Origin: an uncultured Acidobacteriota bacterium
GTDB taxonomy: Bacteria > Acidobacteriota > Terriglobia > UBA7540
Length of the DNA stretch: 64,000 nt
Direction: 5' to 3'
Assembly: GCA_963804995.1 (NCBI GenBank)
Contig: CAWDSK010000005.1
Coordinates: 160,001 to 224,000, forward strand
Shown here piece by piece: positions 6,021 through 63,595 of this stretch. The notes under the pieces are model-generated. The model had not been told where the DNA came from, did no database searches, and saw only the letters and a list, made by a program, of their open reading frames with translations. Position numbers and translations under genes: made by a program. Every line of letters starts with the position of its first letter. Position 1 is the first letter of the stretch.

Positions 6021-6049
6021 ATTCTCGCTTACGAATCCCCCCAAGCATA

Positions 6050-6320
6050 GCAAGTGTAGCGCGGACCTCCGCTGTTGAGGTCCGCGGTTCTTCCTGTGCC
6101 ATTTGATCGGATGTGTCGTGGAAATCGGCCGCCCATATTGGGGGGGGGTGCGGGTGTTTCAAACCAAGCAAGTGTAGCGCGGACCTCCGTTGTTGAGGTC
6201 CGCGGTTCTTCCTGTGCCATTTGATCGGATGTGTCGTGGAAATCGGCCGCCCGTATTGGGGGGAGGCGGGTGTTTCATACGAAGTGCCGCGGACCCCAAA
6301 GGTGGGCGACCGCGCGACAA
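6050..6320. repeat. Tandem GTAG-type REP-like units (about 120 bp)
   Basis: GTAGCGCGGACCTCCG-TGTTGAGGTCCGCGGTTCTTCCTGTGCCAT occurs twice, followed by an inverted partner GCCGCGGACCCCAAAGGTGGGCGACCGCGC. Confidence 0.8.
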
Positions 6321-17949: not shown

Positions 17950-18120
17950 CTGACCGTGGGCTTTTCTCATGCCATGTCAGCAGGCTGCGCATTCAGAATC
18001 AAAGCAAGAACCCACGGTCAGAAAACCACTGACCGTGGGCTTTTCTCCTGCTATATCGGTAGGCCTATGTCTTCAGAATCAGAGGAAGAACCCAACGGTC
18101 AGAAAACCACTGACCGTGAC
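17950..18120. repeat. Duplicated palindromic repeat
   Basis: TGACCGTGGGCTTTTCTC...CAGAATC...AAGAACCCA(A)CGGTCAGAAAACCACTGACCGTG occurs twice. Confidence 0.7.
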
Positions 18121-19093: not shown

Positions 19094-19625
19094 GTTGAGG
19101 TCTGCGGTTCTTCCTGCACCCATTGAGCGAAAGTGTGTTGGTGAAGTAGCCGCCTGTGGTGGGGATTAGCGGGTTAGTCATAATGAGAGCCGCGGACCCC
19201 AAAACCGGGGGACCGCGCTACGAAACATCTCCGGCCTACGGTTACTGTGCATCATAAGATGGAATTCCATGAGCAAACGTAGCGCAGACCTCCGCCGTTG
19301 AGGTCTGCGGTTCTTCCTGCGCCATCTGAGCGAATGTATCGTGGCGATCTCGTTCGTGTTTGGAGTTTGTAGAATCTTCAAACGAAGAGCCGCGGACCCC
19401 AAAACCGGGGGACCGCGCTACGAAACATCTCCGGCCTACGGTTACTGTGCATCATAAGATGGAATTCCATGAGCAAACGTAGCGCAGACCTCCGCCGTTG
19501 AGGTCTGCGGTTCTTCCTGCGCCATCTGAGCGAATGTATCGTGGCGATCCCGTTCGTGTTTGGAGTTTGTAGAATCTTCAAACGAAGAGCCGCGGACCCC
19601 AAAACCGGGGGACCGCGCTACGAAG
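19094..19625. repeat. 200-bp tandem array of paired GTAG REP-like hairpins
   Basis: GAGCCGCGGACCCCAAAACCGGGGGACCGCGCTACGAA at 19187, 19387 and 19587; same family as 6050-6320. Confidence 0.85.
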
Positions 19626-19671
19626 CATCCGGACCAAAGGGCGGCATAAAGCCCGCTCCCCTGCTCTTTTC

Positions 19672-44607: not shown

Positions 44608-45328
44608 GATTGCGGCATGGGGGAATAGGTATCCCGCCCTTTCAGGGCTGGCGGCAAAATTTGGGGTAATCTAAACCCAGGCCTTCAGCCTGGGCTTTGG
44701 AATTTCGCCCCTTTGGGGCTAAGGGGGAGATTGCGGCGTGAGGGAACACCTATCCCGCCCTTTCAGGGCTGGCGGCAAAATTTGGGGTAATCTAAACCCA
44801 GGCCTTCAGCCTGGGCTTTGGAATTTCGCCCCTTTGGGGCTAAGGGGGAGATTGCGGCATGGGGGAATAGGTATCCCGCCCTTTCAGGGCTGGCGGCAAG
44901 ATTTGGGGGTAATCTAAACCCAGGCCTTCAGCCTGGGCTTTGGAATTTCGCCCCTTTGGGGCTAAGGGGGAGATTGCGGCATGGGGGAACACCTATCCCG
45001 CCCTTTCAGGGCTGGCGGCGAAATTTGGGGTAATCTAAACCCAGGCCTTCAGCCTGGGCTTTGGAATTTCGCCCCTTTGGGGCTAAGGGGGAGATTGCGG
45101 CATGGGGGAATAGGTATCCCGCCCTTTCAGGGCTGGCGGCAAAATTTGGGGTAATCTAAACCCAGGCCTTCAGCCTGGGCTTTGGAATTTCGCCCCTTTG
45201 GGGCTAAGGGGGAGATTGCGGCATGGGGGAACACCTATCCCGCCCTTTCAGGGCTGGCGGCGAAATTTGGGGTAATCTAAACCCAGGCCTTCAGCCTGGG
45301 CTTTGGAATTTCGCCCCTTTGGGGCTGA
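44608..45328. repeat. Six-unit 121-bp tandem array of REP-like hairpins, alternating A/B variants
   Basis: Unit starts at 44608, 44729, 44850, 44972, 45093 and 45214; GAA-TAGGT-ATCCC alternates with GAA-CACCT-ATCCC. Confidence 0.92.
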
Positions 45329-46003
45329 GCGGGTAGCGCACAGGTGCGCGTGTTGTGCGTTCCCGTGTGGCCCTTCCCCGCGCGCTCACGCGAACCAGCA
45401 GCCGGGCACCAAAAGACAGTGGCTACTGGCGCGTGACGGGAGAACCGGGGAACGGGACACGGGATTCGGGATACGGGAGCAAATCCAGGGCTCGGGAAGT
45501 AGAGTGGCGAGTGACGAGTCGACAGGCCGACTCCCGAGTCCCGTTTCCCGTCCTTGGCCCCCTCGCAGTGCCCCCGACACTCCCCCGCTTCGTTTATCGG
45601 CGGTTTTTGGGGATGAGATGAGGATTTTCCCTGGCGGGGCGGAAAGCAGCAGCTTCGCCCCGTACCGGGCGGTACGGGGCTTCGCGGCCGCACTCCAAAG
45701 CGCCTGCGGCGCAAGTGACCCCTCATCCGGCCCGCGGTGGCTCAACCCTACCGAGAGCCTCGTCGGTGGCCAGTTCGACGTTTCCTCTTCGGTTAAGCAA
45801 GCGTAGCGCGGACCTGGTCTTTTAGGTCCGCGGCTTTTCGTGCCTGCCAGACGCGAATTAAAATCTCAATGCTGCGGGCGTTTATTAGCAGGCCGTACTA
45901 TGCTATGGTGCAAAGCTGTCTCCTTTCGTAAAATACATACTTGCATTTCGCGTTTCGAATTTCGCGTTTCGAGTTTCGAATTTCGACTTATGATGGTTCC
46001 CGA

Positions 46004-51986: not shown

Positions 51987-54900
51987 ATGACTGCCTGTTT
52001 TCCCGCGCGTATGAGGCGCCTGCGGTTCCGCAGTGCTTCAATCGCAATAATCGGTTTCGCCGCTTGGCTGACGCTCTGGGTGCCGGGGGGAGTCCTACGC
52101 GCCGCGCCGGCCGAGGGGGACGCGGACAAGGCAGTTATTCTCTTTGACAGCCTGGCCGAACCCCACGCCGAATCGTACATTCATGCCCTCTTCCTGAAAA
52201 ACCTGCTGACCCACTTCGGTCTCGAGGGAGACCTCATCCCGGTCAACGTGTATAAGCGGGGGCAATTGGCCGGCTACCGGGCGGGTTTCTTGATCGCCTC
52301 GACACTCGGCGCACAGATTCCGTCTGCCGTGCTCGCTGACGTGCTGGCGACTGACCGGCCTTTCGCCTGGATGGGCGGACATATCGATCAACTCCTCGAA
52401 ATCCCGGAAGCGCGCCGCCGTTTCGGCTTCAGCTTTGTCGAATATCGCACCGACCTCGATTACAGACACGTTGAGTACAAGGATACCCTCCTGGCCAAAC
52501 CGGAGCCGGACCTGAACATCGTGTCGATTACGAACCCGAAAGTCGCCCAGGTGGTGGCGACCGCCCTCAATCAGAAAAAAGTTTCGAATCCGTACGTAGT
52601 GAAGAGTGGCCACTTCTGGTACTTTGCCGACCGGCCGCTTTCCTACATGTCGGAAGGAACCCGCTACCTGGTGGTGTGTGACCTGCTCCATGACATCCTG
52701 GGCATCGACCACCCCGCCGAACAACGCGCCCTGGTACGCATCGAAGACGTGAGCGTGGACGACGATCCCGATGACCTCGTCAAGATTGCGGACATGCTCA
52801 AAAGCCGGCATGTGCCCTTTCAGATAGCCATCATCCCGATCTTCCGCGACCCCGCGCATTCGCTGGAGATCCGCCTGGGGGACCGCAAAGCGACCGTGGC
52901 GGCGATCCAGGCCATGGTGGCTCGCGGTGGGACGCCGGTCATGCACGGAACCACCCATCAGGTCCATGGGCTGAGCGGAGATGAGTACGAGTTCTGGGAT
53001 GAGCTGGGCGATCGGCCCGTGGGGGCCGACTCGGCGGAATTCGTGCGACGTCGGTTGCGGCAAGGCTTGAATGAGTTTTTCGCAAACGGAATCTATCCGG
53101 TCGCCTATGAGGTCCCGCACTACGCGGCGTCTGAGATCGACTACCGCACCCTGGGCCAAACGTTCTCGCTATTTTACGATCGCCCCATGGTGGTACCCGA
53201 CGCCACGACTCAACAGCTTGTGCCCTACCCCGTCGTGGATGGGTACGGCCGTCACATCATTCCGGAAGACATGGGATATCTTCCCGAAGACGATCCCGAC
53301 CCAGAAAAGTTGATCCGTTACGCCCACAGCCTGCGGGTGGTGCGCGATGGGATCGCCTCCTTCTACTTCCACCCGTTTCTGAACCAGAAGCTTCTGGAGC
53401 GAATCGTCCAAGGGGTTACCGAACAGGGCTATCACTTTGTTTCCTTGCGCGAGTTCGGCGGCACGGTTGACTTTGACGGGCTCTACGCGGTTCGTACGGC
53501 TACGGGGAATGTCCGCCTGTCCCCCCAGGATGAGTATTGGCGGGTGCAACAATTCGATGCCGGCGGCAGGTTGGTACGGACCGATCTATCGCCTGCGAGA
53601 ATGAAAGGCCCGGTTGATGTGGCGGTCGAGGTGCCGCCGGGCGGGTATACGGCCGTTGATTGCCTGCGCCAGTTGCCACGCGAACCTGAGCGCGCCACGA
53701 CTTGGCTCGAGCGGCTGCGGTTGTGGTGGAGCGGTGGACCGCCGCCCCCTCCTGCGCCCTCCACCGTGGTTCGCGACAAGTTCTCCGGGCCTCCCGTTGC
53801 TTGGCTCCTTTGGTTGGACAAACCCTCCCCCGGCGCGGGATTCAACCAGGAGAGTTACAAGACGGTGCTTGAGGCTTTGGGGTACCAGGTGCAGGTTGTA
53901 AAGAGCACCAAGTTCACCAGCCCACCGAGGGCCAGGGACGTGCTGCTGGTCATACCTCACGCCGTAGGGGCGCGGCTACCGGACGCGCGGCAAAAGCAGA
54001 TTGCGCAGTATCTCATGTCAGGCGGTGAAGTGCTTGCCGACCGGCAGCAGCCTTGGCTCGAAAAGGCCGGGTTTGCATTCCCAGGCGGCCAGATGGTGAT
54101 TACTTCCGTCACCGATTCTGAACACGCGGAAATGAAGTTGACCTGGCGGCCCGAGGAACGCATCGCGCGGTTTACGGCGCCGGAGGGCGCCCGGGAATTG
54201 ATGACCGATACGGAAAGCGGCCAACCGCTGGCGGTATCCGGTTCCGCCGGGGCAGGCCACTATCTGTACCTCGCAGCGGCGCTCGATAATCACACCAAAG
54301 ACGGCACCAGCCACTATCCCTATTTCCCGGAATACCTCAGCACCACGTTCGGCGTCAGCACCCCCCTGCGCAACACGCGCCTGGACGTTTACTTCGATCC
54401 CAGCTATCGCCCCGGCGCCGACTTCAACCGGCTGGCCACCATCTGGCGCCGCTCCGGCATCAGCACGATTCATGTCGCCGCGTGGTTGTCCACGCGCCAG
54501 TGGCCGTTTCCCTATGAAGAATTCATCCGCGACTGCCACCGCAATGGCATCGCGGTCTACGCCTGGTTCGTCTTCCCGGCCGTGGATAAGGTGGTGCCGA
54601 TCAGTAAGGGTACGATGTGGGATGAGCATCCGGAATGGCGGGAGAAAACTGCGGCCGGCACCGACGGCCAAGTCGGCTGGCGATACTTGATGAATTTCCA
54701 GGATCCCGACTGCTTCCAGGCAGCGATGGATTGGATGAAAGGCATCCTTAATCAGAGCGATTGGGATGGCGTCAATATCGCGGAATTGAACTTCGATGCC
54801 GACTTCAAGGATTACCTGCGCCCGGACAAGTTTGTTCCCATGAACGACATTGTGCGCGCGGACTTTAAGAAGAAAGCCGGCTTTGACCCCATCCAGTTAT

Positions 54901-56012
54901 TCCGGCCCGGCTCCCCCCACTACTACAAAACTGACCCGGCCGGGTTTGCTGCCTTCGAACATTACCGCGAAGACATCGTGATGGATTGGCACCGGCGCGT
55001 GCTGGGGGAAATCGAGCCCCTGCGCAAGCAGCACGGCTGGGAAGTCATCGTCACCGCGCTCGATAGCCTGCACGACAACTACGTAAAGCCTGCGCTGGGC
55101 ATGGACTCGCGCCGCCTGGTGGGCTTGATGAACGAATTCCCGTTCACCCTCCAGATCGAGGATCCCGCGCGCTTTTGGATGGCGCCCCCCGACCGCTACC
55201 AGCGTTTCGCTGCCACCTATCGAAAATTGATCCCCGATCCGCGCCGCCTGATGTTTGACGTCAATGTGGTCCCCGATCGGGATTTGAAGGGCACTTTCCT
55301 GCCCTCGTTCACAGCTACGGGCACGGAGTTGGCGCTGACGGTTGCCAGCGCCGCTTCTGTCGCGGGGCGGGTAGCGGTGTATTCGGAGCACACCGTGCCG
55401 CCCCAGGATTGGGATCTTATCCAGGTGGTGTTAACCCATCAGGCCTCGATCACCCCGGAGCGCAACGGCGTGGAGGTCAACACCCGCACCTCCCTACTCT
55501 TCACCCCCGCGGACGATCCTCTTTATTACGTCGACGGCCGCCTCTGGCCCGCTTTTTCTGCGGACGGCGTGGTGCTGCCCAGGGGACGGCACTCCATCTC
55601 CCCCAAACAGGATTGGTGGCGCTTCCTTCACACCGACGAATTCCAAGCGCGCATTGTGAATAGCTCCGCGGATCTGCTCGACGCCCAGGCTGACGCCACC
55701 AACCTGAAGTTCCATTATTGGTCGCCGGGCCGGGCGGTCATCACTTTCGATCAGCAGCCGCGTGATATCCTGGTGGATGGCGCCTCCCAGACCTTGCCCA
55801 CCGAGCGCAACCTCCGCAACTGGGCGGTGGTTTTCCCTTCCGGTGACCACCACGTTCTGGTTATCACAAATACCAAAGCCGGGGTGGCCGTGAATGTGGT
55901 AGGCTGGGCTTCTTCCTGGGCCATCGGCGCTTTCGGCATCCTGGTGACGGCCCTCATGGTGATTGTCTACTTGCAACTGCGCCTGGAGCGAATTATAAAA
56001 CGTAATGGATAG
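51987..56012 (+). CDS. Large periplasmic DUF2334 polysaccharide deacetylase fused to a glycoside-hydrolase-like domain, with C-terminal TM anchor
   Basis: Signal peptide; RIEDV, MHGTTHQ, PHY and FYFHPF deacetylase motifs; later CHRNGIAVYAW...HPEW...WDGVNIAE TIM-barrel-like region. Confidence 0.75.
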   Translation: MTACFPARMRRLRFRSASIAIIGFAAWLTLWVPGGVLRAAPAEGDADKAVILFDSLAEPHAESYIHALFLKNLLTHFGLEGDLIPVNVYKRGQLAGYRAGFLIASTLGAQIPSAVLADVLATDRPFAWMGGHIDQLLEIPEARRRFGFSFVEYRTDLDYRHVEYKDTLLAKPEPDLNIVSITNPKVAQVVATALNQKKVSNPYVVKSGHFWYFADRPLSYMSEGTRYLVVCDLLHDILGIDHPAEQRALVRIEDVSVDDDPDDLVKIADMLKSRHVPFQIAIIPIFRDPAHSLEIRLGDRKATVAAIQAMVARGGTPVMHGTTHQVHGLSGDEYEFWDELGDRPVGADSAEFVRRRLRQGLNEFFANGIYPVAYEVPHYAASEIDYRTLGQTFSLFYDRPMVVPDATTQQLVPYPVVDGYGRHIIPEDMGYLPEDDPDPEKLIRYAHSLRVVRDGIASFYFHPFLNQKLLERIVQGVTEQGYHFVSLREFGGTVDFDGLYAVRTATGNVRLSPQDEYWRVQQFDAGGRLVRTDLSPARMKGPVDVAVEVPPGGYTAVDCLRQLPREPERATTWLERLRLWWSGGPPPPPAPSTVVRDKFSGPPVAWLLWLDKPSPGAGFNQESYKTVLEALGYQVQVVKSTKFTSPPRARDVLLVIPHAVGARLPDARQKQIAQYLMSGGEVLADRQQPWLEKAGFAFPGGQMVITSVTDSEHAEMKLTWRPEERIARFTAPEGARELMTDTESGQPLAVSGSAGAGHYLYLAAALDNHTKDGTSHYPYFPEYLSTTFGVSTPLRNTRLDVYFDPSYRPGADFNRLATIWRRSGISTIHVAAWLSTRQWPFPYEEFIRDCHRNGIAVYAWFVFPAVDKVVPISKGTMWDEHPEWREKTAAGTDGQVGWRYLMNFQDPDCFQAAMDWMKGILNQSDWDGVNIAELNFDADFKDYLRPDKFVPMNDIVRADFKKKAGFDPIQLFRPGSPHYYKTDPAGFAAFEHYREDIVMDWHRRVLGEIEPLRKQHGWEVIVTALDSLHDNYVKPALGMDSRRLVGLMNEFPFTLQIEDPARFWMAPPDRYQRFAATYRKLIPDPRRLMFDVNVVPDRDLKGTFLPSFTATGTELALTVASAASVAGRVAVYSEHTVPPQDWDLIQVVLTHQASITPERNGVEVNTRTSLLFTPADDPLYYVDGRLWPAFSADGVVLPRGRHSISPKQDWWRFLHTDEFQARIVNSSADLLDAQADATNLKFHYWSPGRAVITFDQQPRDILVDGASQTLPTERNLRNWAVVFPSGDHHVLVITNTKAGVAVNVVGWASSWAIGAFGILVTALMVIVYLQLRLERIIKRNG

Positions 56013-56018
56013 AATCAT

Positions 56019-57287
56019 ATGCCTTACTCTAGTTGGGTCATCGACGGCTTCTTTGTCGCCACTGTTGCCCTGATCTGGTTCATGCTGGGGTACCAGTCCG
56101 TGCTCTTTTTCCTCGGGCACGGTTATTACCGGCGCACTCGCAAAGTTGCGCTGAAGACGCCGCAGCTCCCCGATTCCGAGCTGCCTTGCATCTCCGTGCT
56201 GGTGCCCTGCCACAATGAAGGGCGGGTTATCGCGCACACGATTCGCGCCCTCCAAAACCTGGTCTACCCGCCCGAAAAAATCGAGTTCCTCCTCATCAAC
56301 GATGGCAGCACGGACAACACCGCGCAGGTCATCCGCAGCTTCGCCGCCGATCCCCGCGTCCGCCTGCTGGACGTGCCTCCTAACCTCAGTGCCCGGGGCA
56401 AAGCCAGTGCGCTCAACTATGCCTTGACTCAGGCGCGCTATCCGGTCCTGTCCATTTATGATGCCGACAACCTTCCAGAGCCCACCGCCATTCGTACCCT
56501 GGCTTCAGAACTGGTGCGTCACCCGGAGCTGGCCGCCGCCGTGGGCATGTACCGCGCTTGGAACCGCCGCCGCGCCCTGCTGACCCGCTTCATCAACATC
56601 GAGGGCATCGGCTTCCAGTGGATTCTCCAGGCCGGCCGCTGGATGATGATGCGCCTCACCTTCCTGCCGGGCACAAACTACGTCATTCATAAGGCCATCA
56701 TCGAAAAACTTGGAGGCTGGGATGAGCAGGCCCTGACCGAGGATTCTGAACTGACCGTGCGCATTTATCAGGCGGGGTACGCCGTCCAGTTTGTTCCTAC
56801 CTCCGTCAGTTGGGAACAGGAACCGGAATCTTTCCTGAACTGGTTTCGGCAGCGCCGCCGCTGGGTGCGGGGCTTCAACTACGTGATGGTGAAACATTCC
56901 GCGGGGCTGCTGCGCACCCGCCCGCGTCGCGTGGCGTTTGAAATCCTCTCCTCGCACTTGTTGTACTACTTCTTCTTCCTGGCCGTCGTCATCTCCGATA
57001 TCCTCTTCGTTCTCTGCCTCTCACACCTCATCGTCATCAACGTGCCCGGACCTTACAGCATTGTGTGGATTCTTGCCTACGCCACGTTTGTCCTGGAGCT
57101 CGTGATCGCGCTCTCCTGTGAGCGCGGCGAAGATTCCATGCTCAATATTCTGTTGACCGTCCTCATGTACTTCACCTATTGCCAGCTTTGGATTCCCGTG
57201 GTGGCGGCGGCCTTCTACGATGACTTCATCATTCATCGCGAGATGAAATGGGCGAAGACGGAACGCTATCAGGTGGATCCGGCGTGA
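56019..57287 (+). CDS. Processive GT2 glycosyltransferase (YdaM/IcaA-like)
   Basis: DGSTD, GKASALN, YDAD, LTED and QRRRW motifs with TM helices. Confidence 0.9.
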   Translation: MPYSSWVIDGFFVATVALIWFMLGYQSVLFFLGHGYYRRTRKVALKTPQLPDSELPCISVLVPCHNEGRVIAHTIRALQNLVYPPEKIEFLLINDGSTDNTAQVIRSFAADPRVRLLDVPPNLSARGKASALNYALTQARYPVLSIYDADNLPEPTAIRTLASELVRHPELAAAVGMYRAWNRRRALLTRFINIEGIGFQWILQAGRWMMMRLTFLPGTNYVIHKAIIEKLGGWDEQALTEDSELTVRIYQAGYAVQFVPTSVSWEQEPESFLNWFRQRRRWVRGFNYVMVKHSAGLLRTRPRRVAFEILSSHLLYYFFFLAVVISDILFVLCLSHLIVINVPGPYSIVWILAYATFVLELVIALSCERGEDSMLNILLTVLMYFTYCQLWIPVVAAAFYDDFIIHREMKWAKTERYQVDPA

Positions 57288-57289
57288 GG

Positions 57290-57410
57290 GATTTTAGATT
57301 TTGGATTTTCGATTTTAGATTTCAAATTTTCGATTTTAGATTTTCGGTTTTGAATTTCCGATTTTGGATTCTCGATTTTGAATCTTGAATTTTAAATCTT
57401 GAATTAAAAA
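57290..57410. repeat. Heptamer tandem array (ATTTT(A/C/G)G)
   Basis: About 16 degenerate 7-bp units. Confidence 0.85.
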
Positions 57411-57493
57411 GTACCCCAGTTGGCTGGAGCAGCCCCCTGACCATTTGATTCTGCCCCCGCCTACCCATCCGCTGCCTCTCGGAAACTCATCCC

Positions 57494-58627
57494 ATGAGTC
57501 ATAAACGCTTTCACGTTCTCGTGGTCTTCGGCACGCGTCCGGAAGCCATCAAGCTTGCCCCGGTCATCCATGAACTCCGGCGCGCGCGAAGCCAGTTCAA
57601 GACCAGCATCTGCATCAGCTCCCAGCACCGGGATTTGCTGGAGCCGATTCTGCGCTGGTTTCGCATCCCGGTGGATTACGATCTGGACGTCATGCGTCCC
57701 GATCAGGAATTGTGCGGGCTGTCGGCGCGCATTCTGGAGAGGTTTCACGACGTGCTCACGCGCTGCCGGCCGGACCTGGTTCTGGTGCAGGGAGACACCA
57801 CCACGGTCATGACGGCCGGCCTGGCGGCCTTCTATCATCGCGTCCCCGTGGGCCATGTGGAAGCGGGGCTGCGCACGCTCAACCGCTATTCACCCTTCCC
57901 TGAGGAGATCAACCGCCGCTTGGCCTCGCATCTCGCTGACCTGCACTTTGCGCCCACCCCGTGGGCTCGAAGCAATCTTCTGAAGGAAGGCATTGCGCGT
58001 AGAAGTATTTACGTTACGGGCAATACCGTCGTCGACGCGTTTCTGGAGACGCGCACGCGGGTGGTCCGCCATCCTCCGGCTCTTTCTGAACTTTCGGACC
58101 TCAAGCTGGGGACGCGGAAGCTGATCGTGGTGACCACCCATCGCCGTGAGAACTTTGGGCCCGGCCTCGCCAATATCTGCAAGGCGTTGCGCCGCCTGGC
58201 AACCGAGCGCGACGACATCGAGATCGTTCTCCCCGTTCATCCCAACCCCAACGTGCAGTCGGTGGTGCGGCCGCTGCTGGGCGGAATCGACCGCATCCAC
58301 TTGATCCAACCCATGGAGTATCCGCAATTCGTGCGCCTCTTGAGCTCGGCCTACCTGGCGCTTACCGACTCGGGCGGTATCCAGGAGGAAATGCCGTCCC
58401 TGGGACGGCCGGTCCTGGTGATGCGCGAGAAAACGGAACGCCCGGAAGGCGTGCAGGCAGGCGTGTGCAAGCTGGTCGGAACTTCGACGGAAGTGATTGT
58501 ACGCACCGTCAAGCAGTTGCTCGACGACCCCAAGGCCTACGCCCAATTTTCAAAACGCCGCAGCCCCTTCGGCGATGGCAAAGCCGCCCGGAAAATCGTA
58601 GCCACGCTCAAGAAACTTTACACCTGA
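57494..58627 (+). CDS. wecB: UDP-N-acetylglucosamine 2-epimerase (non-hydrolysing)
   Basis: FGTRPEAIK, QGDT, HVEAGLR, HRREN and TDSGGIQEE motifs. Confidence 0.95.
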   Translation: MSHKRFHVLVVFGTRPEAIKLAPVIHELRRARSQFKTSICISSQHRDLLEPILRWFRIPVDYDLDVMRPDQELCGLSARILERFHDVLTRCRPDLVLVQGDTTTVMTAGLAAFYHRVPVGHVEAGLRTLNRYSPFPEEINRRLASHLADLHFAPTPWARSNLLKEGIARRSIYVTGNTVVDAFLETRTRVVRHPPALSELSDLKLGTRKLIVVTTHRRENFGPGLANICKALRRLATERDDIEIVLPVHPNPNVQSVVRPLLGGIDRIHLIQPMEYPQFVRLLSSAYLALTDSGGIQEEMPSLGRPVLVMREKTERPEGVQAGVCKLVGTSTEVIVRTVKQLLDDPKAYAQFSKRRSPFGDGKAARKIVATLKKLYT

Positions 58628-58843
58628 GCCCCCGCGGCAATAATTTCCGCTGATTTCTCACCAGCCCAGGCTTTTTCTAATAAGCCACCCGAAGCAGCGG
58701 GATAGAATTGGAATTCATAGCCCTCTCCGAGGGGAGAGGGTGGACCGCCGCCGGCGCTTTCATCAGCCGGGGCGGGCCGGGTGAGGGGTCACTTCATCAC
58801 CAGACGTGGGGGGTGGAGGTCGAGCTCCGCATTGCGCGCTCTC

Positions 58844-59060: not shown

Positions 59061-61880
59061 TCAGCGTTTTCCCCCCTGACATTTTGTTATGTGCGCCATC
59101 CCGCCCTTCTCGCTGCCTTCTGCTTTCCGCTTTCTGCCTTCCGCCTTCTGCCTTCCGCCTTCTGCCTTCTGCCTACTGTTCTTTCCAAAGTGCGCGGCGG
59201 GTTCGAAAGCTTTCTCAAGCGCCTGCCGGTAAGCTTCCACGTCGTAGCCCCTCCAACCTTCCCACAGAGTCCAGGCGCGCACGCGATCGTCGATGAATGT
59301 GGAGTCCGCATCGGTGATGATGAATTCGATGTTCTCACCCGGGCGCAACTTCACACCCGCGCGGTCCAGTTGCCGGGCGGCGATGGCGGTCACGCTGTTC
59401 TTCTGGTAGCTGGCGGGAGCTTTGGTAAGGCGTTTGCGAATGACCAGTTCTTCCGGAGCTACGCTACCATCCACGAGGCGCGCCACGTATTTTGCGTAGA
59501 CTTCCCGAGCCTCGCAGAGTTTGGCGCAATAGGTTGTGAAGTCGCGCGCCTCCGCCAAAATCGTCAGCACCTCAAGCTGCATCCTCGAGACCAGCGGCGG
59601 CGTGTCGTGCCGGCGGCATTCCAGCCCGCGCACTTTCAGCTCGCCCGCCTCCGACACGCAGAAAAAGCGGTTGGGCACCGGGATTTCCGCGCACTGCTTG
59701 GAAGGCAGGAAGACAACGTAGCGATAGACGGCCTCAAGCGCCAAGGGCAGGCCGGTGATTTGTTCGATTTCCTGCGCGAGCCGCAGATAGTCCGCGCGGC
59801 TGGGGACTGGGGGCTGGGGAACAGCCGAAACTCGAAAATCGAAATTCGAAACTCGCGAGGCAGTTACCGAATTTCGAGTTTCGGCCTTTTCGTAATCTCT
59901 GATTTTCGATTGCTGATTGTCGATTGAACCCGTCAATAATCGACCATCGTCAATCGTCAATGGAAAGCGAGTTTCGAATTTCGAATTTCGAGTTTCGGCT
60001 TTTTCGCAATTGCCGACTCCTGACTCCTCACTCCTAACTCCTGCCCCCTGCACATAGAGCGAATCCACCAGCGCATGCAGCACGCGGTAGCCTCGCTGCT
60101 CCGCCACCTCTTTCGCCACCAGCAATTTTTCCCGCGCCAAGGCATTGATGGCCTCGTGCGCTTCGATTTTCCCAAAGCGCGCGTTTTTGTAGCCGGTGTA
60201 CCCGAAGCAACAAACCAGCAGCCACTTCAGCACGTCGCGCCGCTGTTTACAGGCTGCGGGGTTCGGGATACGGGCTACGGGACACGGGATACGGGGTTCG
60301 GGATACGGGGTTCTGGAATCGGGAATCGGGATACTGGACACAAGATGTGGAGTTTGGGATTCTGAATTCGTGGTCCGGGGCTCGGGATTCGAAGTGGGAG
60401 AGGGGAGATTTGCCACAGAACTTTCTCCCTGCATCCTGAAACCTGGAGCCCCAATTCCGAATCCCGAATTCCGAGCCTTCAGCCCCGCAGGTTGGATTTC
60501 CAACCCCGCATCCCGTATCCCGTATCCCGTGTCCCGTGTCCCGGCCTCCGTATTCCGTGCCCCGTATCCCGTGTCCCGTATCTCCTTGTACTTTCGCCGC
60601 TTGGCGATGAGGCGCTCAACCACCCGGCTGGTGATGCCGCGATGCTGCTGGCAGACGCGATAGCCGAGTTCCGGCACGCGCGGCGCCTGCGGGCAGCACG
60701 GACAGTTCACCGTTTCCGGCGAAATATTGAAGCGCGCCATGATGCTGGGGAACTCGCTGACGAAATCCAGTTCCGCCACGTTTTCAAAGAAGCCGAGGCG
60801 CGGAGGAAAGACCAACCCGCCGCGGTCCGCAATCAGCAGCTCATCCGGGAACTTGGGGCTTTCCGGCTCCGCCTTTTGCGCCGGGATCAGCACTCCGTCC
60901 CGCCAGGCGAGTTCCATCTGCATATAGGAAATTCCCGTGCCCGGGGTGGTGCGGCAGGCGTATTGAACCGGCAATTTCGTGATCCGCACCAGTTCCCACA
61001 GGCCTTCCTGCTGGCACTGGTCGGCGCCAAAGGAATTCTGCGTGTCGATGTGCAGCCGCCCGAACAAGGTCGTGGTGCTGTCCTTGAACAGGATGCGCCC
61101 GTAGCTCATGTAACTGCGCGAACGCGTGCTCGCGACCGGCACCTGATCGCGATTCAAGGGCAGGTGGATGTGGCGCCGCTGGGCTTGCCGCAGCAAACTC
61201 GGCAGCAGGACGGAATCACCCCATTCGGTCACCAGCACGTCCGGGTCGTGGACGCGCAGCAGGCGCTCGAAAGTCGCCGCGACGGGTTGCTCAGAATCAT
61301 CCAGCACCTGCCAGTTGTCTTCGATGGCAACCTCCACAGCGCCGTGCCGCCCGTGCCGCGGATTGACGTCAGAGAGCCCTTCCAGGCGCATCCGCATGGT
61401 TCGGACGGGTGGCCGCTCGTAGTCGGTCCGCCACTCATCGTCGCGGCAGTCGATGGCCTGGATCTCACCCGCGGCATTCGCCTCAATCTCCACTTGCGCC
61501 AGGGGGAAAAGATTTTTCCCCCAACAGTACATCGGCGCCAGCATCAGGTCAGAGTCGTACAGGATCAGGTCGCTATCGAAGCGGCGGACGAAGCGCGCCA
61601 GCGGCGCGAACAGTGTGGGATGGTGCGCGGACACCTGGAGCACCCGCAGCGGTTGCCGGTCCCAGATGTTCTGCCGCTCCGTCAGTTGGCAGCTCACCCG
61701 AGCGCGGGCCGGGAGCGTTTCCGCCAGACGCGCCAGTTGCCCTTCCGGTCCCTGCACGTAAAAGCAGGGGAGGAAAGCGCTGTCAATCAGCCGGCGGCGC
61801 CTCTGGTTCGGCTCGATAAGCCACAGCACCATCCCCTGCGGGCAGGGGTAAAGGTTGAGAATCCATCCACTGAGTCTCAA
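59061..61880 (-). CDS. Family B DNA polymerase, PolB2-like, with in-frame repeat insertions
   Basis: Motif A LDFVSEFPSI..FNISPET; motif B LKWLLVCCFGYTGY; motif C HALVDSLYV; KVRGLECRRHDTP; degenerate exonuclease region. Confidence 0.88.
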   Translation of the reverse strand: MRLSGWILNLYPCPQGMVLWLIEPNQRRRRLIDSAFLPCFYVQGPEGQLARLAETLPARARVSCQLTERQNIWDRQPLRVLQVSAHHPTLFAPLARFVRRFDSDLILYDSDLMLAPMYCWGKNLFPLAQVEIEANAAGEIQAIDCRDDEWRTDYERPPVRTMRMRLEGLSDVNPRHGRHGAVEVAIEDNWQVLDDSEQPVAATFERLLRVHDPDVLVTEWGDSVLLPSLLRQAQRRHIHLPLNRDQVPVASTRSRSYMSYGRILFKDSTTTLFGRLHIDTQNSFGADQCQQEGLWELVRITKLPVQYACRTTPGTGISYMQMELAWRDGVLIPAQKAEPESPKFPDELLIADRGGLVFPPRLGFFENVAELDFVSEFPSIMARFNISPETVNCPCCPQAPRVPELGYRVCQQHRGITSRVVERLIAKRRKYKEIRDTGYGARNTEAGTRDTGYGIRDAGLEIQPAGLKARNSGFGIGAPGFRMQGESSVANLPSPTSNPEPRTTNSESQTPHLVSSIPIPDSRTPYPEPRIPCPVARIPNPAACKQRRDVLKWLLVCCFGYTGYKNARFGKIEAHEAINALAREKLLVAKEVAEQRGYRVLHALVDSLYVQGAGVRSEESGVGNCEKAETRNSKFETRFPLTIDDGRLLTGSIDNQQSKIRDYEKAETRNSVTASRVSNFDFRVSAVPQPPVPSRADYLRLAQEIEQITGLPLALEAVYRYVVFLPSKQCAEIPVPNRFFCVSEAGELKVRGLECRRHDTPPLVSRMQLEVLTILAEARDFTTYCAKLCEAREVYAKYVARLVDGSVAPEELVIRKRLTKAPASYQKNSVTAIAARQLDRAGVKLRPGENIEFIITDADSTFIDDRVRAWTLWEGWRGYDVEAYRQALEKAFEPAAHFGKNSRQKAEGGRQKAEGRKRKAEGSEKGGMAHITKCQGGKR

Positions 61881-62130
61881 GGTTTATTCCTAACGCCGCC
61901 TCGATTTTGCGCAGCCGGATTTCGTGGTCCAGCTCCACGGCCACGTGAATGCCGTGCATCGCGTCCACGGGAAAGTGATAGGTGCAAGCCTGCACGTAGA
62001 GGCGCACGCGATTGAACATCGCCTCCAGATACACTTGCTCTTCCTGGCGCAGGGCGCGGCCAAAGCGCTGCTTCCAGGATTGCAATTCCTGTTCGATCAG
62101 GTCACGAAAGGTGGCAACGGTTCGTCCCAT
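61783..62130 (-). CDS. Small helical PolB2-associated protein (arCOG07300-like)
   Basis: MGRTVATFR...W..F.RALR.EE pattern; lies between the RecA-like gene and polB. Confidence 0.75.
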   Translation of the reverse strand: MGRTVATFRDLIEQELQSWKQRFGRALRQEEQVYLEAMFNRVRLYVQACTYHFPVDAMHGIHVAVELDHEIRLRKIEAALGINLETQWMDSQPLPLPAGDGAVAYRAEPEAPPAD

Positions 62131-62270
62131 GGGTCCTCCTTCCAGGGGCTGGGGACTGGGCGTCAGGATCGAAACTCGAAATTCGAAACTCGAAATTCGG
62201 TGTCCCGCTCACGAGTTTGCCCGAGACTCCGTCGGGGCAAGGGGGCGAATTTCGAGTTTCGTCCTTTCCC

Positions 62271-63035
62271 CTAGCCCCCAGTCCCCAGCACCTTGTCCTT
62301 CTGCATCAACCCCAGCCGGCCCTGGGCATCGAGCTGAAACTTCCAAAGTTCGGTCGCGGCCGCGCAGGTCTGGGTGAAAAAGAGCTTGCGGCGCGCGGAC
62401 GGTTGGAAACCGGAGACGGAAGAAAACAGCGCCACCGTCAAAGGTAGCGCAGAGTTTTTGGGACTCTGCGGCGCGTCAGGCCCGAAACTTGAAACTCGAA
62501 ACTCGAAATCCGGCAGCTCGCTCACGATTTTCGAGTTTCGATTTTCGAGTTTCGCCGTTTCCCCAGCACCCAGCCCCCCGTCCCTGCCGGCGAGGACGCA
62601 GCGTCGGAGGTGCCCAAGCGCCTGCCGGAAGGTCGCCTGCGCGTCGGCATCGCGCACGTCCTCATCGAAATAAAGCTCGGGGAAGGCGGTGACCATCAGA
62701 ACCTGGGCGGGAAAGTCCGCCAGAAATTGGGGCACGCGACTGATCAGCTCGGTGAGTTGAAAACAGGTGAAGGCCCGCGCGATCTTGATCTGCCGGCTGA
62801 TTTGCGCAAAGGGGATCCCGCGCTGTTCCGCCAGCCGCGCGATCAGCCGCGGGTTGGCTGAGTTCGCGCCATCGAGAAACAGAATCCGCTTGCCCTCCCG
62901 CGCCAGGCGTGGCAGGAAGTAGTGGCTGAGCCGGGGCGCGTCGTACTCCCCGTGAAAGACCGCCAGGCCCTGCGGCGGCAGATGCCAGGGCTGGGTCAAG
63001 GCAGCCGGCAGCGAAGTTGGCCCCTGCATGAACAT
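62271..63035 (-). CDS. Inactivated RecA/RadA-like (ImuA-like) protein
   Basis: ILFLDGANSANP, IKIARAFTCFQL and LYFDEDV motifs; no intact Walker A. Confidence 0.75.
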   Translation of the reverse strand: MFMQGPTSLPAALTQPWHLPPQGLAVFHGEYDAPRLSHYFLPRLAREGKRILFLDGANSANPRLIARLAEQRGIPFAQISRQIKIARAFTCFQLTELISRVPQFLADFPAQVLMVTAFPELYFDEDVRDADAQATFRQALGHLRRCVLAGRDGGLGAGETAKLENRNSKIVSELPDFEFRVSSFGPDAPQSPKNSALPLTVALFSSVSGFQPSARRKLFFTQTCAAATELWKFQLDAQGRLGLMQKDKVLGTGG

Positions 63036-63064: not shown

Positions 63065-63093
63065 AGTGTAGGCGAATAAAAAGCGAAAGTCAA
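63065..63093 (-). promoter_or_regulatory. Sigma70 promoter with a LexA-box-like direct repeat in the spacer
   Basis: Minus strand TTGACT-TTCGCTTTTTATTCGCC-TACACT: 17-bp spacer with TTCGC repeated at an 11-bp period. Confidence 0.75.
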
Positions 63094-63143
63094 GTCGATC
63101 GGAAGATCGGCAGTGTCCTAGTTTGGAAAGAAGCCCCAAGTGA

Positions 63144-63385
63144 CCCCTCACCCGTCCCGCCCCGGCTGATGAAGACGCCGGCTGCGGTCCACCCTCTCCC
63201 CTCGGAGAGGGCGGTTACTCAAGGTAAGGTGCGGTGCCGTAGCTACCCTGAGATCATAGCCTTCTCCCCAGGGGTCGCAGATCCGCCGTGGCGGAAGAAG
63301 GTGGCTGACGTAGGAAGCCGGATGAGGGGTTACTTGCACCTGCAGGGCGTCGAAACAATTTGCAACTCATAAATTCAAAAACTAT
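63144..63385. repeat. Copy of the CCCCTCACCCGTCCCGCCCCGGCTG element with a right TIR
   Basis: Matches 26007-26200. Confidence 0.8.
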
Positions 63386-63528
63386 TAGCCCGGCGCTACG
63401 TCAAACTAGGTCACTACCGGAAGATCGGCACACGCGCGAATCATCTGGACGAACTTTCGCTCGCGTGCTAGAAAAGAATTTCGCTTGAGCAAGGCATTTT
63501 TTTGACGAAAGCCGTCAGCTAACGCCTT

Positions 63529-63595
63529 AGCTGATAGCTGAAAGCTGATAGCTGATAGCTGAAAGCTGATAGCTGACGCCTGATAGCTGACCGCT
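63529..63595. repeat. Heptamer tandem array (AGCTGA(T/A/C))
   Basis: About 9 units, preceded by an inverted GTCAGCTA. Confidence 0.85.

Follow-up and report, generated by a model that had tools for sequence, protein, structure and literature searches.

Here we describe the polB2 gene of an uncultured Acidobacteriota bacterium of soil type, which lies in a stretch of 64,000 nucleotides (assembly GCA_963804995.1, contig CAWDSK010000005.1, positions 160,001 to 224,000; hereafter the window, to which plain coordinates refer) and encodes a damage-tolerance DNA polymerase, a 939-amino-acid (aa) B-family enzyme of the PolB2 group. Two large arrays of inverted seven-base units lie in frame within the core of this enzyme. 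They are probably copies of the heptamer-hairpin elements dispersed in this lineage, inserted where the surface of the PolB2 core is most permissive, in the fingertip loop and in the loop after motif C. The mRNA would be translated straight through them, giving two disordered loops rich in Pro, Ser, Gly and Arg, with consequences close to neutral. New elements would enter or recombine into existing hairpins, producing a nested, family-swapping structure, and slippage would trim or extend the hairpin arms. The operon, an SOS operon that would be repressed and dispensable, would gather more elements than other genes.

Two heptamer hairpins within the polymerase core

The polymerase carries D352-R353, the motif A aspartate D372, the motif B lysine K552 and the motif C LVD606S. 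Pfam DNA_pol_B matches the 939-aa open reading frame (ORF), and the best PDB matches, both in sequence and in fold, are archaeal PolB enzymes. Insert 1 lies before motif B and insert 2 after motif C (Table 1). In insert 1, GGGATAC, GGGACAC and GGGATTC units face GTATCCC-type units around a unique centre to form a long hairpin, with arrays detected by Tandem Repeats Finder (TRF) at 60248-60338, 60449-60474 and 60505-60582. Insert 2 is nested: a GAAACTC/GAGTTTC stem encloses a GATTGAC/AATCGAC hairpin and a third GAAACTC array, and outside it the GGAGTCA and CCCCAGT arrays, not being complementary to each other, pair along only about 6 bp (TRF arrays at 59800-59820, 59826-59855, 59899-59926, 59938-59961, 59968-59997 and 60015-60043). 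A first reading made from the sequence alone (the sequence-only reading) had described palindromic heptamer arrays in frame and free of stops in the polymerase core, and this is confirmed for both inserts in the 939-aa ORF. It had rightly placed insert 1 before motif B, at about 60258-60582 with about 108 aa, but the bounds had to be moved; it had seen three families nested as inverted pairs in insert 2, and the nesting is there, but the families are four and only two of them form true inverted pairs.

RNA folding was compared with dinucleotide shuffles. Both hairpins are more stable than expected by chance, with z = -8.9 for insert 1 (0/100 shuffles as stable) and z = -5.1 for insert 2 (0/200). 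The arms are 116 nt long with 72% complementarity in insert 1, and 42 nt long with 90% complementarity in insert 2. Both arrays are degenerate: their longest perfect runs comprise 3.0 units (insert 1) and 2.9 units (insert 2). A further array, already noticed as encoding an RQKAEG tail at 59100-59180, is present within slightly narrower bounds; it is one-sided, lies beyond the last invariant residue, A891, and resembles about 64 loci elsewhere in the genome.

The two loops are hypervariable among relatives

Relatives of polB2 were taken from the best 80 of 378 matches. Most of the 79 related loci fetched are titled Acidobacteriota, Terriglobia or Acidiferrales, and the nearest named relatives are Terriglobia. 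After 22 partial, duplicate or frameshifted loci had been left out, 66 proteins were aligned. Motif B is identical in 65/66 of them and the aspartates of motifs A and C are invariant; HALVDSLY is found in 55/66 and ADRGG in 64/66.

Alignment with insert-free orthologues, the check that the sequence-only reading had proposed, fixed the junctions and revealed no conserved sequence in the loops among orthologues. Between fixed anchors, site 1 measures 15-16 aa in insert-free orthologues, 114 aa here (net about +98) and up to 133 aa in relatives; site 2 measures 10 aa, 88 aa (net +78) and up to 93 aa, respectively. In the relatives both loops are hypervariable and filled by unrelated palindromic repeats. 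Taking as expanded any insert of at least 21 nt over the insert-free loop, and counting identical sequences once, we obtained 64 inserts. Because 25 of these have no period-7 array, several being other palindromes, the PolB2 loops are general sinks for hairpin elements. Among the 53 inserts of at least 120 nt, 45 fold with z < -2. On the core tree, read without support values, site 1 expands in several separate places, as in L082, where a 104-aa loop stands beside 16-aa sisters.

Site 1 aligns to the turn between two finger helices, the fingertip, of Pyrococcus abyssi PolB. The PolB fingertip reportedly varies, can accept splits and, in phage polymerases, is a hot spot for insertions (PMC3061061; papers given by PMC number are cited for the sections covered). 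The structure model of PolB2 matches archaeal PolB folds with a mean predicted local distance difference test (pLDDT) score of 69.7; pLDDT falls below 50 at residues 441-534 and 615-689, and the core elements around these segments are intact. The suggestion that the inserts are selected disordered loops thus stands in part: disorder fits the model, but the evidence is of selection for frame and against stops, not for loop sequence.

Further inserts of up to 63 aa, which are REP-like (REP standing for repetitive extragenic palindromic) or heptamer hairpins, occupy two other PolB2 sites in relatives, one after residue 138 (L032, L105, L039 and L041) and one after residue 290 (L096, L032 and L035). 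A REP-like palindrome (CCCTCTCC...GGAGAGGG...GGGTGAGGGG) flanks the operon in two opposite copies, at 58720-58790 and 63140-63215; by eye, the same kind of palindrome is read in frame at site 1 of L041, L042 and L105.

Frame and freedom from stops are kept across different inserts

The reading frame is kept in 48/49 distinct inserts at site 1 and in 14/15 at site 2, that is 62/64 in total. Seven and three have no common factor, and each frame of a heptamer array therefore runs through one and the same set of codons. In the coding frame, the inserts have 0 stops in 3,706 codons, as against 62 and 100 stops in the sense frames +1 and +2; since the frames of an array do not differ in their codons, this gap reflects selection. 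Intergenic heptamer clusters have 0.040 stops per codon, and 48/372 frames are stop-free in those of at least 150 bp. The median ratio of nonsynonymous to synonymous substitution rates (dN/dS) of the core is 0.154 in the long-insert clade (36 pairs) versus 0.142 for 10 insert-free pairs. The polymerase core stays under purifying selection, and selection removes versions of the inserts that are out of frame or bear stops.

These data bear on an intron-like fate, one of the possibilities raised by the sequence-only reading, in which the hairpins would be cut from the mRNA and the ends joined, or skipped by ribosomes, to yield an insert-free polymerase. The hairpins are indeed very stable, and RNase III cuts an element of related design out of 23S rRNA, the heptamers of the Coxiella intervening sequence (IVS) lying at the cut (PMC4990558). 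That excision, however, gives fragmented rather than rejoined RNA (PMC4990558). If the inserts were removed or bypassed, selection for frame and against stops should also be relaxed, but 62/64 inserts, of unrelated sequence, remain in frame and free of stops. Since repeat-coded residues have replaced part of the native loops, taking out the repeat body would cut the fingertip loop to about 6 residues out of 15-16 and the palm loop to 6-7 out of 10, lengths below those of every insert-free orthologue. Junction sequences are unconserved, and an Rfam scan returned 5 weak matches, all far below the gathering score and none to an intron family. We consider removal or bypass highly improbable. Because frame and stop-freedom are kept across different inserts, tolerated loops are favoured over both splicing and an on-off switch, and the inserts are most likely translated as floppy surface loops, not cut out.

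Two particular forms of removal were set aside. A self-splicing intron was rejected on the unconserved junctions, the kept frame and the lack of a group I or group II match in Rfam, and an intein on the lack, by eye, of conserved splice-junction residues or conserved sequence.

It could also be argued that polB2 is a decaying pseudogene or that the inserts are assembly artefacts. The sources are metagenome-assembled, and a search of public runs for the sequence words of the window listed no RNA run and none with half of the words. Against this, the same sites are filled in many independent assemblies, core dN/dS is about 0.15 with the catalytic residues kept, and a decaying gene would gather stops. 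This explanation is largely refuted and we give it hardly any credence. When four DNA runs were mapped at 80% likeness, all that came back were contigs from relatives and cross-matches between repeats, with no listed piece across the window.

A phase-variable switch is weakly supported at best

The sequence-only reading had also proposed that gain or loss of a single heptamer, by shifting the frame, could switch a mutator polymerase on and off within a population. The mutator part of the claim holds insofar as polB2 belongs to a mutagenic class, PolB2. Insert lengths vary greatly among relatives, and in L106 the interval containing the frameshift holds a perfect 4-copy AGATTCA run, its length of 302 fitting the loss of one unit from 309. 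However, unconstrained lengths would leave about one third of the inserts in frame, far from the proportion found, and perfect runs are short (median 2.2 units, maximum 4.7). The shift in L089 falls at a 6-base unit, implying a single-base loss, and 5 further loci of the 79 change frame outside the inserts, so that background errors, a single-base error among them, or decay could also explain L106. As far as these sequences show, the locus lacks the marks of a phase-variable contingency locus, a perfect tract of some length and many alleles out of frame, with perfect runs of at most 3 units here and 2/64 inserts out of frame. A phase-variable mutator is thus quite unlikely; slippage may occasionally knock the gene out, and nothing in these sequences points to a programmed switch.

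Heptamer elements are dispersed in the genome

Period 7 is the largest class of tandem repeats in the genome (1,215 rows). The survey of genes with inserts, another proposed check, gave 605 heptamer clusters, of which 454 lie between genes, 125 extend over a gene end and 26 lie inside genes; hosts of the internal clusters include methionyl-tRNA synthetase, class II ribonucleotide reductase, a HemD-HemE fusion, BacA and Mfd, according to a scan of 17 proteins. Inserts 1 and 2 match about 48 and 79 other loci, respectively, through their arms, the best matches being 67-81% identical, and their centres are unique. An inverted pair is present in 117/605 clusters. Among 7,512 windows of 5 kb, the highest count is 6 clusters; the polB2 operon is one of three loci that reach it, and it contains 3/26 gene-internal clusters.

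This density could be taken as a sign of regulatory dampening, in which the inserts would be translated while their stems reduce the output of the mutasome, as sites of RNase III cleavage or ribosome stalling, and would for this reason be kept and gathered. The persistence of hairpin character while the sequence is replaced fits this proposal, as does the bias of intragenic REPs towards genes for DNA synthesis, replication and repair (PMC3733652). Many orthologues, however, have no insert at all, the hairpin shape is general to the elements rather than particular to polB2, as the inverted pairs above indicate, and the excess is accounted for, without a function, by relaxed selection on an accessory operon that is repressed. 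Dampening is in our view unlikely.

Another locus with 6 heptamer clusters in 5 kb is L111 (G000:C5:301200-304600), where they lie in frame in a glucosaminidase domain and in two genes without Pfam match, one in-frame insert being about 120 aa long. Two other ideas were tried and dropped. Exclusion from genes of unit families that encode stops showed a weak trend only (15/40 internal versus 308/661 intergenic rows) and was not used. PolB2 as maker of the repeats was rejected on a crude proxy, the presence of the polymerase against first-look repeat candidates: G017, G018 and G021 (84-96% complete) have no polymerase match and 129-176 candidates, whereas G026, G028, G029 and G037 have polB2 and only 2-8.

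Heptamer arrays bracket PF05635 genes

The genome has 15 matches to the PF05635 four-helix-bundle family (label checked on two proteins), and a 7- or 8-base array lies within 250 bp of 15/15 of these genes. Inverted arrays bracket 11/15 of them versus 11/1,144 small genes; several of those PF05635 genes are themselves part of this control set. The families of the polB2 inserts are among the brackets: GGGATAC, of insert 1, at two PF05635 genes and GAAACTC, of insert 2, at one. The family is present in 24/24 same-genus genomes searched, with 2-21 matches each. When the best PF05635 locus was taken from each of 30 other genomes, 28 had arrays, 23 had them on both sides and 16 had inverted pairs; the units differ. 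A four-helix-bundle gene within an inverted stem, with heptamers where RNase III cuts, is also the layout of the Coxiella 23S IVS (PMC4990558). PF05635 itself is similar to Avd, an accessory protein of retroelements (PMC10053308).

From these layouts we infer that the polB2 inserts are gene-less derivatives of an IVS-like cassette in which inverted heptamer arrays surround a PF05635 gene. A bolder proposal places them, as non-autonomous members, in a class of mobile elements not yet described, in which inverted heptamer arrays normally surround a gene for an Avd-like four-helix bundle and which would home into existing hairpins, probably through an RNA step. They would be targeted to, or retained in, SOS-induced mutasome operons, where stems sensitive to RNase III would dampen output and the fingertip loop of 100 residues may change the fidelity of the mutator polymerase. 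We regard this as a tentative possibility and an improbable one. The link of the cassettes to heptamer arrays is apparently unpublished: we found no account of heptamer-flanked PF05635 cassettes outside rRNA in the literature covered, to which most subscription papers do not belong.

Several observations weigh against near-neutral dispersed elements that are translated through, or loosen the numbers on which that reading stands. Two of the 64 expanded inserts are out of frame, the ranking that gave the best 80 of 378 matches may favour intact genes, and many rows are kin, so that the counts are not independent events. Low pLDDT stems partly from the scarcity of aligned homologues within the inserts, and the gene caller was crude (6,335 genes, 77% coding), which makes the genome counts approximate. 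Finally, the arrays may be ordinary repeats that gather around PF05635 genes. No PF05635 remnant or full cassette was found in the polB2 loci searched, and descent from the cassettes therefore rests on shared unit families and layout.

Near the cassettes two other arrangements were seen. In L114, L118 and L123, a gene with heptamer arrays inside or near it (metG, bacA and a Memo-AMMECR1 fusion) is the direct neighbour of a PF05635 gene or fragment. At G000:C1:265687-266088, inverted octamer arrays (CGCAGAGA/TCTCTGCG) stand on either side of a small gene, which represents a second cargo family for this cassette layout; by eye, we take this gene to be of the GxxExxY family.

Comparison with known repeat systems

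Rickettsia palindromic elements (RPEs), whose original descriptions are reportedly those of Ogata et al., and Borg tandem repeats, whose coding units are said to be multiples of three, offer two points of comparison. As with RPEs and intragenic REPs (PMC3733652), the inserts belong to dispersed palindromes found in frame in conserved genes, often of DNA synthesis or repair and sometimes twice in one gene, and would be read as extra peptide. They are palindromic, multi-copy and in frame where orthologues have none. The precedent of RPEs and cyanobacterial heptamers invoked in the sequence-only reading holds as regards in-frame insertion into loops. RPEs and REPs, however, form conserved-sequence families with GTAG or CGTC ends (PMC3733652), whereas the inserts here are nested mosaics of many degenerate heptamer families, of up to 133 aa, swapped at a given site between close relatives. 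There is no single conserved element of set length and ends: only the arms match elsewhere, and families differ between relatives. By eye, no GTAG or CGTC terminal tag is present at the insert ends; genes for REP-associated tyrosine transposases (RAYTs) were not searched for.

Long simple sequence repeats (SSRs) of heptamers include the STRRs (short tandemly repeated repetitive elements) of cyanobacteria, GGGAATC of Xanthomonas (PMC4692102) and TAACTGA of Beggiatoaceae (PMC4679880). These too have 7-base units, are mostly intergenic and often face each other as inverted pairs, and ORFs carry them now and then, for example in a surface loop of a protein resembling an RNA polymerase subunit (PMC4692102, PMC4679880); a genome-wide period-7 excess, mainly intergenic, is likewise found here. 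The coding cases in the sections covered involve few units, mostly at protein ends (PMC4692102, PMC4679880), whereas in polB2 two catalytic motifs have about 190 repeat-coded residues beside them, and the arrays are linked with PF05635 genes. With the ORF-bearing 23S IVS (S23p/PF05635; PMC4990558), the full cassettes of the genome share the inverted stem, the heptamers and the four-helix-bundle gene, inverted arrays enclosing PF05635 in the 11 of 15 cases given above. The polB2 inserts differ in that they have no ORF, lie in mRNA rather than rRNA and must be read through. Borg tandem repeats (PMC9879509) are also fast-evolving repeats inside ORFs that give disordered segments, but they are direct repeats in archaeal elements, in contrast to inverted heptamer mosaics in a bacterial chromosome.

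The inserts are best viewed as a variant of RPE and intragenic REP behaviour within the heptamer long-SSR class. No account of heptamer hairpins in acidobacterial genes was found in the literature covered, subscription papers lying mostly outside its scope and supplements outside it altogether; Additional file 3 of PMC3733652 lists intragenic REP cases and may bear on this point.

The polB2 operon and its surroundings

By its motifs and gene order, the polB2 gene is the PolB2 of an iRadA-PPB2-PolB2 mutasome operon. The bacterial order iRadA-PPB2-PolB2, the MGRT arm of PPB2, the D(K/R) motif and an altered DxD are described in PMC11791011. The locus shares with that system the gene order, the MGRT start of PPB2, the D(K/R) motif, a DxD whose first Asp is replaced and candidate SOS control. 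It differs by its large repeat-derived loops, which the sections covered of PMC11791011 do not mention. PPB2 is present in 78/84 loci and the iRadA-position gene in 76/84; the latter had no match in Pfam and NCBIfam scans, and its identity is taken from operon position. At the iRadA hairpin site, relatives have other heptamer families or none. Two pairs of polB2 loci, L047 with L048 and L046 with L098, each share one record title, which suggests duplicated operons or mixed bins.

Table 1. Features of the polB2 operon and its upstream region, in window coordinates
Feature	Position	Strand	Basis
polB2, 939 aa, PolB2-group B-family DNA polymerase	59061..61880	minus	motifs, Pfam DNA_pol_B
AGGCAGA-type one-sided heptamer array, read as C-terminal RQKAEG tail	59115..59178	minus	TRF, alignment
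Insert 2, palm loop after motif C, residues 612-699	59784..60047	minus	orthologue alignment, TRF, folding
Insert 1, fingertip loop before motif B, residues 434-547	60240..60581	minus	orthologue alignment, TRF, folding
PPB2, 115 aa, MGRT start, PolB2 partner	61783..62130	minus	MGRT motif, gene order
GAAACTC-family hairpin and CCCCAGT array between iRadA and PPB2, overlapping iRadA stop	62169..62289	.	TRF
iRadA-position gene, 254 aa	62271..63035	minus	operon position
In-frame GAAACTC/GAGTTTC hairpin in iRadA	62483..62554	minus	TRF
TTCGC-N6-TTCGC direct repeat beside TTGACT -35-like hexamer, candidate SOS (LexA) operator	63072..63087	minus	conserved upstream
TAGCTGA heptamer array (stop-rich family), intergenic, upstream of surE	63528..63590	.	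TRF

Among 73 upstream regions collected, TTCGC-N6-TTCGC is the commonest spaced repeat (count 48), and it also lies 5' of radical-SAM-, DUF72- and DinB-like genes, labelled by eye. We read it as an SOS operator, a candidate LexA box of Terriglobia, and it is the one sign here of the damage-induced expression that, with error-prone synthesis, marks the PolB2 mutasome. The GTTC-N7-GTTC box matched in 1/73 of these regions. The TTCGC repeat, with an AT-rich spacer, was also noted before several repair-type genes at G000 C4:191816, C6:125238, C3:622073 and C5:137884.

Elsewhere in the window, long tandem arrays lie at 44608-45333 (121 bp x 6), 19186-19629 (200 bp x 2.2), 6049-6284 (118 bp x 2) and 17950-18118 (79 bp x 2.1), and are probably clustered REP-type units. 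A putative exopolysaccharide cluster occupies 51987-58627, with a 1,341-aa DUF2334 protein, a family 2 glycosyltransferase and a UDP-GlcNAc 2-epimerase.

What the inserts mean for PolB2 and for heptamer repeats

The more dramatic readings, splicing and a mutator switch, are not supported. What the locus offers is an extreme natural experiment, in which repeat-coded residues adjoin two catalytic motifs, purifying selection still acts on the core of the polymerase, and the two loops provide 64 different inserts for comparison. It maps four insertion-tolerant sites of PolB2 and shows a route from non-coding repeats to protein loops. It also connects the unexplained heptamer repeats of bacteria with a single gene family, so that their origin can be tested; the mobile-class proposal, if true, would explain the long-noted bacterial excess of 7-base repeats.

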